A DNA stretch of 64,000 nucleotides from Alphaproteobacteria bacterium (GCA_965205535.1 CBDBHH010000005.1:2140672-2204671), one strand, 5' to 3'; shown: positions 15,427 through 18,449, counted from the stretch's first letter. Translations and numbers: made by a program. Notes: a model not told the origin generated them from the sequence alone.

Positions 15427-16338
15427 ATGTTCAATTTGTTGATAAGCGGTAACGAGGACGCATTCGATGGTAAACCCTGGACCCTAGAGCGGCCGCGTGT
15501 TTTTGAGCACACAAGCGATGCAATCAAACAACGCTATCAAGACTTAGATAATCAACAGTTATCTGAGCTCTACAATTTCCCGACGCTATTCGCATTCGAG
15601 AGCGGTATCGGAAAGAACGCTAGATTAGGAAGGATTGAGCGCGCCCTAATGAGGCAGGGCGAAGTCCGGATCGAGTATTCTTTTGTCGATGGTTTACCAG
15701 AGATTACCTCCGAACAGTTCCAGGCACTGAGATGGGAACTAGAAGTTTCAGACGGGGAATATAACCGTACTCATTGGGCTGTTAAGGACGTGGATTTGGC
15801 AGCAGAGCTGATCTCTGCCGGTTTGATTAATCAGGATCAGTTAGACGATTTAGCTGAAGATTGGCGTTTGTTGTTCAGTGCTGAACCAGCCGCGCCGCCC
15901 ATGCATATTCAGCCAACTGTCTTCAAAATGCCGACGGGAACCGTTGAGCCCGATTTGGTCTCGATGATGCTACCTCTCAGTGCGGACTTTGGCCCAGTGT
16001 TCGATACCGTCAGTCGTGCCGGATTAGATTTGGGACTAAGGGTGTTGAATGCGAACCAAGTTTGGGAAGAAACGGAAATCATCCAGGATATATTTTCTTT
16101 GATATTTCGTTCCAAGTTTGTCGTCTGTGACTTTAGCGGAAGGAACCCAAATGTTTTTTATGAGGCCGGAATTGCTCACACGCTCGGACGTACAGTAATC
16201 CCGATTGTTCAGAACATCGACGATATCCCATTTGACCTTCGACATCATCGACACGTTGTTTACTTGAACAATGAGGAGGGCAGGCGGGCTCTTCTTGAGG
16301 CTCTAGTGCCGAGAATGACGGCGTTGGCTGAAAAGTGA
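15427..16338 (+). CDS. Uncharacterised two-domain protein: unknown N-terminal domain plus C-terminal TIR-like / nucleoside 2-deoxyribosyltransferase-like Rossmannoid domain
   Basis: 303 aa, starting 11 nt after the mod stop. C-terminal pattern LVSMMLPLSADFGPVFD...KFVVCDFSGRNPNVFYEAGIAHTLGRTVIPIV...IPFDL...VVY, with candidate catalytic Glu246 (GAG 16162-16164). N-terminal domain ends ...NRTHWAVKDVDL. Confidence 0.6.
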   Translation: MFNLLISGNEDAFDGKPWTLERPRVFEHTSDAIKQRYQDLDNQQLSELYNFPTLFAFESGIGKNARLGRIERALMRQGEVRIEYSFVDGLPEITSEQFQALRWELEVSDGEYNRTHWAVKDVDLAAELISAGLINQDQLDDLAEDWRLLFSAEPAAPPMHIQPTVFKMPTGTVEPDLVSMMLPLSADFGPVFDTVSRAGLDLGLRVLNANQVWEETEIIQDIFSLIFRSKFVVCDFSGRNPNVFYEAGIAHTLGRTVIPIVQNIDDIPFDLRHHRHVVYLNNEEGRRALLEALVPRMTALAEK

Positions 16339-16343
16339 GCTAG

Positions 16344-18449
16344 ATGAACTTCCTTCTCGCAGACACCTTCCAGTCAGCGCTGGCCAAGCTTTCAAATGAT
16401 GAGCAGAAGGCCGTTAAACTGACGGTATTCGACCTTCAGCAAGATCCGTCCAATCCGGGATTAAAACTCCATCGCATCGACAAATCGAAAGATCCGAACT
16501 TCTGGTCAGTTCGGGTAAACCGCGACGTACGTCTGATCATTCACAAGACCCAATCGAGTTTTCTGATTGCCTATGTGGATCATCATGACGATGCCTATAA
16601 GTGGGCAGAGCGTCGTCGGATCGATATGCATCCACGAACGGGAGCCGCGCAGATCGTTGAGGTCCGCGAGCGGGTCGAAGAGATCACCATCCCGTCCTAT
16701 GTCCAATCCCAAGAGCCAGAAGTTCAGGAAGCTGCGGAAGCTTCGCCACGTTTCCTTCCGCCGCTGTTCCTGGAGTTAACGGAAGAAGATCTACTGAAAG
16801 TCGGCGTGCCTGAAGATTGGGTCGATGACGTTCGAAATGCGTCCGAGGATAACTTCTTCGAATTGACCGACCATATCCCTGCAGAAGCTGCCGAGGCGCT
16901 TCTCGACTACGTTTCTACGGGTAGTCTTGTCGTGCCCGGCAGCGTCGAGAAGGGGAGCGATCCCTTTGCACATCCCGATGCGCTGCGCCGCTTTCGGGTT
17001 ATGGAGAATGTCGAGGAGCTGGAACAGGCGCTCAACTACCCTTGGGACAAGTGGGCCATATACCTCCATCCCAATCAGCGTGAATTGGTCAATTCAAACT
17101 ATTCCGGCCCGGCACGTGTCGCTGGCTCGGCAGGAACCGGTAAGACCGTCGTCGCTCTTCATCGCGCGGCGCATATCCTGCGCAATGAACCGAATGCGAA
17201 ATTGCTTGTTACGACCTTCTCAAGCCCGCTCTCGAACGCATTGGAGCATAAGCTTCGACTACTCATGGGTGAGGACGGGAACTTCGATCACAAGGTCTCC
17301 ATCAGGCCGTTTGAAGGAGTAGCACGGGAACTGTTCACACTGATAAATGGGCATGACCCGAACGTTGCACGGCAAGAGCACGTGACGGCCGCATTGACGA
17401 CTGCGATGCAAGAACAAGAACTGAGTGGTTTCACAGACCGTTTCGTCCTGTCCGAGTGGCGCTACGTGATCGATGCCTGGCAGATCGACAGCTTGGATGC
17501 TTATGCCAATGTCCCGAGGTTGGGTCGAAAAAACCGCTTAGGCAGTAAGCAACGGGAGCGGCTTTGGCCGATGTTCGAACGCGCCAAGCAGCTTTTGAGC
17601 GATCAACGGCGATATACCTCAGCGACCGTATTTGGCGGCGTCGCCAATCACTACAAGAGCTCTGACGCTAAACCTTTTACACACATCATCGTTGACGAAG
17701 CCCAAGACCTTGGTGTTCCGGAACTGAAGATGATCGCGGCGATTGCGCCTGCTAATCCGCAGGCCCTGTTTTTTGCTGGCGATCTCGGGCAGCGAATATT
17801 CCAGGAGCCATTTTCTTGGCTCGGGTTAGGGATCGACATACGTGGCCGTTCGCACACACTGAAGGTCAACTACCGTACGTCTCACCAAATCCGACAAGCA
17901 GCCGACAAGCTCCTACCGGATGTCGTGCGTGATGTTGACGGCATCGAAGAAGATCGTCGCGGAATGGTTTCGATCTTCAATGGTCCTGATCCGGAAGTGT
18001 TCAAGTACGCGTCGGCTGATGACGAGACCAAGGCCACCGGACGTGCAATCCAAGAAGCCATCGATGAAGGCATGCCGCCCGAGGAGGTCGGCGTGTTCGT
18101 ACGCTCGGAGAACGAGCTCTCTCGTGCGCGTCAGGCTGCCAAAGAAGGCGGTCAGAAGCCGTTGGAGCTATCCGACAGAGTAGAAGATCGAACCGGGAAA
18201 GTAGCCATCGGCACAATGCACCTGGCGAAGGGTCTGGAATTTCGTCAGGTCATCGTCATGGCCTGCGACGATGAAGTGCTGCCCGACCAGGATCGTATCG
18301 ATACGGTGGCGGATGAGGTCGAACTGGACGAGGTCTACGAGACGGAGCGACAGCTATTTTACGTCGCATGTACCCGTGCCCGCGAGAAGCTAATAATCTC
18401 GGGTGTAGAGCCAGCTTCAGAATTTCTCGCAGATATAGTGAATGGATAG
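16344..18449 (+). CDS. UvrD/Rep-like SF1 helicase with N-terminal RelE/ParE-fold-like module
   Basis: 701 aa, starting 5 nt after the previous stop. Walker A GSAGTGKT (aa 261-268), Walker B IIVDEAQDL, VNYRTSHQI, GTMHLAKGLEFRQVIV, LFYVACTRAREKL. N-terminal 95 aa pattern LHRIDKSKDPNFWSVRVNRDVRLIIHK...FLIAYVDHHDDAYKWA. Confidence 0.85.
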   Translation: MNFLLADTFQSALAKLSNDEQKAVKLTVFDLQQDPSNPGLKLHRIDKSKDPNFWSVRVNRDVRLIIHKTQSSFLIAYVDHHDDAYKWAERRRIDMHPRTGAAQIVEVRERVEEITIPSYVQSQEPEVQEAAEASPRFLPPLFLELTEEDLLKVGVPEDWVDDVRNASEDNFFELTDHIPAEAAEALLDYVSTGSLVVPGSVEKGSDPFAHPDALRRFRVMENVEELEQALNYPWDKWAIYLHPNQRELVNSNYSGPARVAGSAGTGKTVVALHRAAHILRNEPNAKLLVTTFSSPLSNALEHKLRLLMGEDGNFDHKVSIRPFEGVARELFTLINGHDPNVARQEHVTAALTTAMQEQELSGFTDRFVLSEWRYVIDAWQIDSLDAYANVPRLGRKNRLGSKQRERLWPMFERAKQLLSDQRRYTSATVFGGVANHYKSSDAKPFTHIIVDEAQDLGVPELKMIAAIAPANPQALFFAGDLGQRIFQEPFSWLGLGIDIRGRSHTLKVNYRTSHQIRQAADKLLPDVVRDVDGIEEDRRGMVSIFNGPDPEVFKYASADDETKATGRAIQEAIDEGMPPEEVGVFVRSENELSRARQAAKEGGQKPLELSDRVEDRTGKVAIGTMHLAKGLEFRQVIVMACDDEVLPDQDRIDTVADEVELDEVYETERQLFYVACTRAREKLIISGVEPASEFLADIVNG

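Follow-up and report, generated by a model that had tools for sequence, protein, structure and literature searches.

Does close spacing within a defence operon identify two genes as functional partners? This question is raised by a locus in a 64,000-nucleotide stretch of DNA from an Alphaproteobacteria bacterium (GCA_965205535.1 CBDBHH010000005.1:2140672-2204671; the whole stretch is called the window here), in which restriction-modification (R-M) genes are followed by a gene for a 303-amino acid (aa) protein and a gene for a 701-aa helicase. A preliminary description of this DNA had put forward the last two genes as a candidate two-gene defence module appended to the R-M operon. We found that the operon spans positions 8980-18449, all on the plus strand, in the order res, a PIN gene, mod, the 303-aa gene and the helicase gene. 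We think it probable that the locus is a type III-like R-M system whose third gene, the helicase, is ArmD-like, and that two cargo effectors, one PIN and one resembling nucleoside 2'-deoxyribosyltransferases (NDT) and TIR domains, occupy variable slots between the core genes.

Much of what the preliminary description had observed was confirmed. The table of open reading frames (ORFs) gives the 303-aa and 701-aa ORFs on the same strand as mod, with gaps of 11 nt and 5 nt, and the strings that had been quoted from them (FVVCDFSGRNPNVFYEAGIAHTLGRTVIPIV...IPFDL, GSAGTGKT, DEAQD, YRTSHQI, TMHLAKGLEF, ACTRAR) all occur in the translations. The GC profile reads 0.48-0.54 at ~8-19 kb and ~0.60-0.65 on both flanks, and a tRNA-Thr gene lies at the right edge, in agreement with a low-GC, tRNA-linked island. 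Both genes are defence-related, as had been proposed, and the helicase indeed goes with the R-M genes next to it.

The tie between the helicase and the R-M genes was assessed in the 80 best helicase-selected metagenome loci and in further helicase-selected loci, genomes included. Mod was found upstream of the helicase homolog on the same strand in 42 of 42 loci whose sequence extends more than 4.3 kb upstream, and Res likewise in 27 of 27 loci in which it extends more than 9.9 kb. Solo copies of the helicase were not seen among these loci. When each locus was compared to the window, the identities of Res and of the helicase co-varied (r = 0.94, 37 loci), and the R-M-linked helicases formed a distinct subfamily whose members are 50-83% identical to each other. 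Three of the loci (L104, L110 and L122) and one Pseudomonas avellanae plasmid carry res, mod and helicase abutting with no cargo; the plasmid genes are annotated 'BPTD_3080 family restriction endonuclease / site-specific DNA-methyltransferase / 3'-5' exonuclease'. We found no fourth conserved gene upstream of Res or downstream of the helicase in related loci. The conserved unit is therefore Res, Mod and the helicase, with the helicase fixed as the last gene. We also noted a Tistrella mobilis plasmid (NC_017958.1, 748063-753318) in which a Res match on the plus strand and a helicase match on the minus strand lie ~40 bp apart in an unannotated record, so that mod cannot fit between them. This suggests that the Tistrella copy is rearranged or decayed.

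The two gaps within this unit vary from locus to locus. Slot 1, between res and mod, measures ~0-3.2 kb, and 15 of 50 loci have nothing in it; slot 2, between mod and the helicase gene, measures 3 bp-4.1 kb and is empty in 12 of 75. Where filled, the slots carry individual, closely packed genes drawn from many unrelated families of defence or toxin genes. Some 80 loci yielded 129 cargo ORFs that form 83 clusters. By Pfam and PADLOC, slot 1 holds GmrSD, NYN, PIN, ORF6N, RhuM, REase-ARP, PD-(D/E)XK, Fic and DUF3800 proteins; slot 2 holds OLD/GajA/AriA/NsnB-like ATPases, PLD, GmrSD, TIR_2, ThsB_TIR, NDT, DUF488, PIN, Macro, FRG, Abi_C and ankyrin proteins. Close relatives of the window system, with helicases 73-79% identical, carry different slot 2 contents: L081 has two small ORFs there and L082 an ATPase, whereas the slot is empty in L085 and L095. 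The BPTD_3080 R-M family as a whole seems to host cargo. The slots act as a natural defence-gene trap, in which many of the clusters have no Pfam match and from which new effectors could be mined by guilt by embedding.

The end of each cargo ORF lies at most a few nucleotides from the start codon that follows. Upstream of the helicase start we found no shared junction motif and no conserved recombination site, the sequences there being unrelated, and integron-like exchange of cargo was rejected on this ground. Recombination inside the flanking conserved genes is favoured instead.

Two of the related loci groups merit separate mention. In L082 (8301-9998) and in slot 2 of L089, L090 and L139, a 549-565-aa OLD/GajA/AriA/NsnB-like ABC ATPase lies directly upstream of the GajB-like helicase, which makes a Gabija-like gene pair formed within an R-M operon. 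At L081:12153-16332, adjoining the triad of that locus, we observed a divergent BrxR/WYL-type regulator and a group of CBASS-like genes (SMODS, bacterial HORMA, AAA ATPase, DUF6602), with prophage genes beyond them; the region is a dense defence island.

The helicase has three parts. The preliminary description had spoken of a toxin-fold cap, and an AlphaFold2 (AF2) model searched with Foldseek shows that residues 1-106 do adopt a RelE/YoeB/ParE fold: RelE 3bpq_B was matched with E 3.9e-5, a TM(target) of 0.78 and a root-mean-square deviation of 2.3 A, alongside YoeB, YafQ and ParE, and the Pfam HigB-like toxin family was matched at 0.0014. Next come residues 107-138, with a predicted local distance difference test (pLDDT) score below 50, and helices at 147-231 with pLDDT ~78. 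The remainder is a superfamily 1 (SF1) motor whose core matches many PADLOC GajB models and NERD+UvrD, and UvrD, PcrA, Rep and GajB by profile in the PDB. The Walker A motif GSAGTGKT (K267, codon 17142-17144) and the Walker B motif DEAQD (residues 451-455) are invariant across helicase homologs. The lack of an attached nuclease also held, as Pfam, PADLOC and NCBIfam all found no nuclease domain in the protein. The helicase is a divergent UvrD/GajB-type SF1 helicase.

Its architecture had been described as unlike that of any named system. This does not apply to the helicase, which is homologous over its whole length to ArmD, a component of ARMADA type II (Bell et al., bioRxiv 2025, PMC12458937). 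BLASTP aligned it to Escherichia coli ArmD end to end (residues 5-686, 31% identity, E 1e-100), with K267 opposite ArmD K266. The middle region, residues 107-235, is conserved and collinear with ArmD, and R57, R63, K68, H81, D82 and Y85 of the RelE-fold domain are conserved, in ArmD too. The E. coli plasmid ArmD gene shares 97.8% DNA identity with the O157:H7 gene that directly follows ArmC WP_000937974.1, the ArmC representative of ARMADA II (PMC12458937). Distant plasmid homologs of the helicase, full length and 29-35% identical, end another operon, consisting of a DEAD-box helicase, a 1300-1640-aa methyltransferase, an 1800-2100-aa DEAD-box helicase and the helicase itself; it corresponds to the operon that Bell et al. 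define as ARMADA type II (PMC12458937). There all four genes are essential, and defence is direct and non-abortive, without cell death or metabolic shutdown; ArmD K266A abolishes defence and D454N weakens it (PMC12458937). A second study saw a milder armD deletion phenotype (10.1101/2025.09.22.677730), and full ARMADA defence needs ArmD in both studies (PMC12458937; 10.1101/2025.09.22.677730).

With these findings the ArmD-type helicase, which combines a RelE fold with a UvrD motor, is known from a second methylation-based restriction chassis that is unrelated to ARMADA II. Its presence on two chassis suggests a general accessory role in restriction. The three-gene system is also simpler than ARMADA II and has natural minimal versions on plasmids, which could be used for working out ArmD function.

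The toxin-like fold invites another explanation, in which the helicase is a stand-alone abortive-infection (Abi) protein: its UvrD motor would sense phage DNA or replication intermediates and unleash a RelE-like RNase, backing up the R-M system as other cargo would. The RelE/YoeB fold does keep conserved basic, His and Tyr residues, back-up suicide effectors are common in R-M loci (PrrC, PMC12707154; BREX auxiliary effectors, PMC12839542), the more distant BPTD_3080 R-M systems do without the helicase, and the armD deletion phenotype was the weaker one in one study (10.1101/2025.09.22.677730). Cargo comes and goes, however, whereas the position and presence of the helicase are invariant in every locus long enough to score Mod or Res, and the helicase has diverged together with Res and was not seen alone. 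ARMADA II moreover needs ArmD for a defence that is direct (PMC12458937). We therefore regard a stand-alone Abi helicase as unlikely.

We turn to the 303-aa protein. Confidence in its AF2 model, for which 20 homologs were used, is high (pLDDT 88). The Rossmannoid, TIR/NDT-like C-terminus that had been noticed in the sequence is real at the level of the fold. In the PDB, Foldseek placed the nucleoside 2'-deoxyribosyltransferase 8pqq first (E 6e-5), followed by DNPH1, the CMP N-glycosidase BcmB and the TIR domains of SARM1, MAL, AbTir and SPARTA; in the BFVD viral library the C-domain matched a CMP/hydroxymethyl-CMP hydrolase (3e-8), CAP12/Pycsar TIR and NDT. The model thus places the C-domain in the NDT/TIR N-glycosidase superfamily, intermediate between NDT and TIR at fold level. 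E246 (codon 16162-16164, in the motif NVFYEAGIA), D235, N240 and N242 are invariant across homologs, so that both residues earlier proposed for mutation, E246 here and K267 in the helicase, are invariant ones. The sole PADLOC match of the protein was the CBASS-type TIR effector PDLC00733 (residues 192-276, 1.8e-10); no PADLOC whole-protein model, no Pfam family and no NCBIfam family matched it, and a sequence-profile search of the PDB returned chance-level matches alone.

All of the top PDB and BFVD matches fell on the C-domain, and none on the N-terminal domain. A profile search with the latter retrieved 1518 representative clusters out of 1.84 billion proteins. Among 99 of the best matches, those of at least 240 aa, the domain behind it was TIR_2 in 26, CAP12-PCTIR_TIR (CAP12/Pycsar TIR) in 25, TIR in 9, Abi_C (the AbiJ HEPN domain) in 9, a protein kinase in 6 and SEFIR in 4, with PNP and CHAT also present; TIR-type domains thus follow it in ~60 of the 99. 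PADLOC matched bearers of the domain to PDC-S35, PDC-S66, bSEFIR (7), PD-T4-6 (6) and AbiJ (6). Even at E up to 1, neither the 303-aa protein nor any of 20 homologs matched Pfam AbiJ_NTD; AbiJ_NTD3 was matched by two of the 99 bearers, at 5e-52, and one source labels a homolog 'AbiJ N-terminal domain-containing'. We propose that the N-terminal domain is an Abi-type sensor or regulatory module. The same domain was seen fused to an FRG/PDC-S15 domain in gp44 of the P2-like phage Peduovirus P2_2H1 (L165:320-1684), where the gene lies near the right end of the genome beside replication genes.

The preliminary description had suggested that the 303-aa protein and the helicase may form a new system, a sensor helicase with an effector that depletes NAD or nucleotides, which either is independent of the adjacent R-M or cooperates with it. 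Several observations speak for such a two-gene system. The two genes are 5 nt apart; besides the window, six fetched loci and Sphingorhabdus lutea have both; the R-M-embedded 303-aa copies share a single clade and are in every case immediately upstream of the helicase; and the OLD/GajA-like ATPases next to the GajB-like helicase in four loci make a helicase-effector pairing conceivable. The distribution of each gene, however, did not show a conserved pairing. Among the 80 best loci selected with the 303-aa protein, 74 have no Res, Mod or helicase and no conserved neighbour, and the remaining 6 have the res-mod-303-aa-helicase arrangement. From the other side, the full-length 303-aa family is present in none of the ~69 helicase-selected loci with a scorable slot 2, although L084 and L094 have a variant of the C-domain, and slot 2 can stand empty. 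The helicase is never without Mod and Res wherever the sequence permits checking, and the 303-aa protein has its own widely reused N-terminal module, as is typical of stand-alone Abi proteins. An autonomous two-gene system is accordingly very unlikely, and close spacing within a defence operon is not enough to mark two genes as functional partners.

Solo relatives of the 303-aa gene have mixed defence and mobile genes as neighbours (ThsB_TIR, AAA_21, ResIII, Abi_C, integrases), and 18 copies of the family are on IMG/VR viral contigs. In neighbour-joining (NJ) trees the R-M-embedded copies, although one clade, are spread over the helicase tree. This indicates that the cassette moved between related operons, always into slot 2. 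As judged from sequence, the 303-aa protein is a self-contained, Abi-type single-chain protein that is cargo of the slot between Mod and the helicase. It adds an NDT/TIR-like member to the Abi-type class of proteins built from an N-terminal domain and an effector. In slot 2 of L005 (9160-10972) the family is represented by a fragment of 155 aa and a complete copy of 324 aa, an arrangement that resembles a partial tandem duplication. The cultured Sphingorhabdus lutea (CP018154.1, complete genome; L194:3860-18194) has the res-mod-303-aa-helicase arrangement with slot 1 empty and would be a convenient experimental source. In L194, res spans 4014-7046, mod 7046-9994, the gene for the 303-aa homolog 10001-10921 and the helicase gene 10918-13029; the operon is preceded by an HTH_17 (AlpA-like) gene and followed by SMEK_N and DUF2326 genes and a tyrosine integrase.

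The structural neighbours of both proteins could also be read as those of housekeeping enzymes, a UvrD/Rep-type repair helicase and a deoxyribosyltransferase of nucleotide salvage that lie next to the R-M genes by coincidence. Among solved structures the helicase is indeed closest to UvrD, PcrA and Rep, and the 303-aa protein to nucleoside 2'-deoxyribosyltransferases; PGAP labels the helicase a '3'-5' exonuclease'. The helicase, however, scores 52-66 bits against the NCBIfam models for UvrD, Rep and PcrA, for which the equivalog cut-offs are 911-1144. The genes occur on plasmids and viral contigs as well as in the low-GC island, the linkage of the helicase to R-M is strict, it carries a RelE-fold N-terminus, and the N-terminal domain of the 303-aa protein is common to AbiJ, SEFIR, kinase and TIR defence proteins. 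A housekeeping role can be given next to no credence.

Our preferred reading, in which type III-like R-M genes are joined by an ArmD-like helicase and two cargo effectors, can be put as a mechanism. Mod would methylate host sites, and Res together with Mod would restrict unmethylated incoming DNA. The helicase would serve as an ATP-dependent accessory motor that is required by restriction or boosts it, a role proposed because ARMADA II, whose defence is direct and non-abortive, cannot do without the Walker A lysine of ArmD; the helicase would probably work on DNA after recognition or cleavage, and its RelE-fold domain may be an RNase or an interaction module. The PIN RNase and the NDT/TIR-like glycosidase would be independent second-line effectors that are co-transcribed with the R-M genes. 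In the 303-aa protein, the N-terminal domain may keep the C-domain inactive until a phage cue releases it, upon which the C-domain would cleave N-glycosidic bonds of NAD+ or nucleotides via E246 and growth would stop. Recombination within the conserved genes on either side would swap cargo from one related operon to another.

A bolder form of this scheme would make the Res-Mod-ArmD-like triads a distinct, widespread and unnamed defence system, in which the helicase, as the shared coupling device, senses failed or ongoing restriction on DNA and licenses the adjoining cargo, and the slots are exchange sites for second-line effectors. If so, the NDT/TIR-like protein would act with the helicase as one of many plug-in effectors. 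We consider this scheme unlikely.

Several points weigh against an R-M system with an ArmD-like third gene and independent cargo. The partnership of the helicase with Res and Mod, and its action, are put together from synteny and from the ArmD of a different system. The 80 helicase loci are the best of 332, and the 80 loci of 303-aa relatives are the best of 455 in a scan of one genome per species; the identity values come from the best tblastn segments, the NJ trees carry no support values, and the slot ORFs were called mechanically at a minimum of 90 aa, so that some may be spurious, those on the minus strand above all. In a plasmid search with Res, more distant BPTD_3080-family R-M operons lacked the helicase: Rhodococcus plasmids have res and mod only, and on pAQ5 of Picosynechococcus sp. 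PCC 7002 (L196:8989-17591) the helicase is replaced after mod by a 624-aa P-loop and cytidine/dCMP deaminase protein. The helicase is thus not universal but an addition that is fixed within one large subclade, in which Res is at least ~50% identical. Finally, all seven sampled R-M-embedded 303-aa copies from the fetched loci fall in one clade and lie in slot 2 adjoining the helicase, so that some functional adaptation of the protein to this position may have taken place. On pAQ5 we also observed a UPF0175/DUF3368 pair between res and mod.

The features of the operon are collected in Table 1. The product of res scores 1277 bits against the NCBIfam BPTD_3080 family restriction endonuclease model (cut-off 800); it matches Pfam ResIII and RE_endonuc, and the PADLOC REase_III models weakly. 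The Mod protein matches PADLOC MTase_III PDLC03632 over its full length (1183 bits) and Pfam N6_N4_Mtase (1.2e-33). Mechanical calling started mod at TTG 12437, overlapping the PIN gene; homolog alignments start at ATG 12476, which for this reason is most likely the true start. The ATG of the PIN/VapC-like gene overlaps the res stop codon (ATGA), its product scores under the NCBIfam VapC cut-off, and the ORF table of the window shows no antitoxin ORF beside it.

Table 1. Coordinates of the operon, of the predicted domains of its last two products and of the adjoining tRNA gene (window positions)
Feature	Coordinates	Strand	Description
res	8980..12093	+	First gene of the operon; 1037 aa; type III-like restriction endonuclease with superfamily 2 (SF2) ResIII ATPase and C-terminal endonuclease domain
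PIN/VapC-like gene	12090..12464	+	Slot 1 (Res-Mod) cargo; 124 aa; solo PIN/VapC-like RNase gene; Pfam PIN 3.4e-8
mod	12476..15415	+	Beta-class N6/N4 DNA methyltransferase with long C-terminal extension
303-aa gene	15427..16338	+	ATG start; 11 nt after the end of mod (15415)
303-aa protein, residues 1-135	15427..15831	+	N-terminal alpha+beta domain; invariant motif NRTHWAxKDVDL; AF2 pLDDT ~90-96
303-aa protein, residues ~171-303	15937..16338	+	C-terminal flavodoxin-like domain; predicted NDT/TIR-type N-glycosidase by fold match
Helicase gene	16344..18449	+	Last gene of the operon; 701 aa; ATG start; 5 nt after the 303-aa gene
Helicase, residues 1-106	16344..16661	+	N-terminal RelE/YoeB/ParE-fold domain (AF2 and Foldseek)
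Helicase, residues 107-235	16662..17048	+	Disordered linker, then helical middle domain
Helicase, residues 236-701	17049..18449	+	SF1 UvrD/GajB-like motor; Pfam UvrD-helicase and UvrD_C
tRNA-Thr(TGT)	18949..19024	-	Right edge of the low-GC island holding the operon; ARAGORN

The ORF table of the window shows no integrase for the island, and a search for a direct repeat of the tRNA end as an att site gave nothing convincing, with one 14-nt pair at chance level. Promoter and terminator scans gave no signal above the expectation from shuffled sequence (at or below it). At the left edge of the island two plus-strand ORFs, 7796-8173 (125 aa) and 8319-8831 (170 aa), match nothing in Pfam, PADLOC or NCBIfam and are not kept upstream of res in related loci.

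How does this locus compare with systems that have been described? We found no papers on 'BPTD_3080' in the searchable literature, and no description there of an R-M-linked ArmD-like helicase, of a Res-Mod-ArmD-like triad or of its two cargo slots. The window has the beta-class amino-methyltransferase Mod and the SF2 Res with a C-terminal PD-(D/E)XK-type nuclease that are found in type III R-M systems. It differs from their two-gene mod-res unit in its res-mod order, its conserved third gene and its two cargo slots, although two-gene res-mod relatives of the window R-M do exist. Murray et al. 2021 (PMC8259958) described type III R-M systems that carry an additional, helicase-like gene of unknown role, syntenic in hundreds of genomes. 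These share with the window a Mod and a Res with a conserved extra ATPase/helicase gene; there, however, it encodes an SF2-type ATPase 5' of mod in N4-methylcytosine systems, whereas the window gene encodes an SF1 UvrD-type protein with a RelE fold and lies 3' of mod. They are a precedent from a different family.

Effectors within restriction loci are known from PrrC in EcoprrI (reviewed in PMC12707154) and from the auxiliary suicidal effectors of BREX loci (PMC12839542), and Abi/HEPN genes have been noted as 'embedded in R-M operons' (PMC3710099). The cargo described here is similar in that toxin-type genes (PIN, HEPN, TIR, OLD, PLD and others) lie between the core genes of a methylation-based restriction operon. 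It differs in having two defined slots in a three-gene operon and a very high turnover, as the ratio of clusters to cargo ORFs shows. PrrC senses the inhibition of R-M, which the cargo described here is not known to do.

The 303-aa protein itself resembles the AbiJ-NTD class and the proteins that match the PADLOC models bSEFIR, PD-T4-6, AbiJ, PDC-S35, PDC-S66 and PDC-S15. Anantharaman et al. 2013 (PMC3710099) described AbiJ-NTD modules, including fusions to nucleoside deoxyribosyltransferases, and proposed an attack on N-glycosidic bonds as the toxic activity; the N-terminal domain was proposed to recognise an invader component and the C-terminal enzyme to be the toxin (PMC3710099). Likewise, the 303-aa protein is one polypeptide in which an N-terminal alpha+beta module that is reused before HEPN, TIR, kinase, SEFIR or NDT domains precedes a toxin-type enzymatic domain, here of NDT/TIR fold with the invariant E246. 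It differs in that neither the Pfam AbiJ_NTD models nor any PADLOC model for a whole protein matched the 303-aa protein itself. We know of no member with this exact architecture that has been tested experimentally.

The helicase core scores with many GajB models, and four related loci have an OLD/GajA-like ATPase directly upstream, both of which are reminiscent of Gabija; the window helicase differs in its extra RelE-fold domain and in being tied to Res and Mod. Gabija was rejected for the window locus, as no gene for GajA, the OLD-family ATPase-TOPRIM nuclease, is present at 7-19 kb. Thoeris, in which ThsA (SIR2 or Macro with SLOG) is the partner of a ThsB TIR protein, was rejected because the island is without a SIR2 or SLOG gene and the 303-aa protein matches no ThsB model; Hachiman, Nhi and DISARM were rejected because their defining partners or domains are missing.

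The closest comparison is with ARMADA type II. The locus as a whole was rejected as an ARMADA system. Although the helicase is an ArmD homolog, ArmA, ArmB and ArmC are missing: the operon partners in the window are a BPTD_3080-family type III-like Res (SF2 and PD-(D/E)XK) and a beta-class N6_N4 methyltransferase, in place of ArmA (Snf2/BrxHII-like), ArmB (a PglX-like methyltransferase) and ArmC (a YprA-like helicase-nuclease with Vsr). The R-M-linked helicases are ~30-35% identical to the ARMADA-linked ones, and the three loci of ARMADA architecture that we inspected have no cargo slot before ArmD. The helicase and ArmD nevertheless share one architecture from end to end, with a RelE-like N-terminal domain, a middle region and a GajB-like UvrD SF1 core. 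Both are encoded by the last gene of a co-directional operon that also encodes a DNA methyltransferase and an ATP-dependent nuclease-translocase. Both, finally, are additions to a single subtype, so that the presence of the helicase in one subclade of BPTD_3080 R-M systems parallels that of ArmD in ARMADA II as opposed to ARMADA I.

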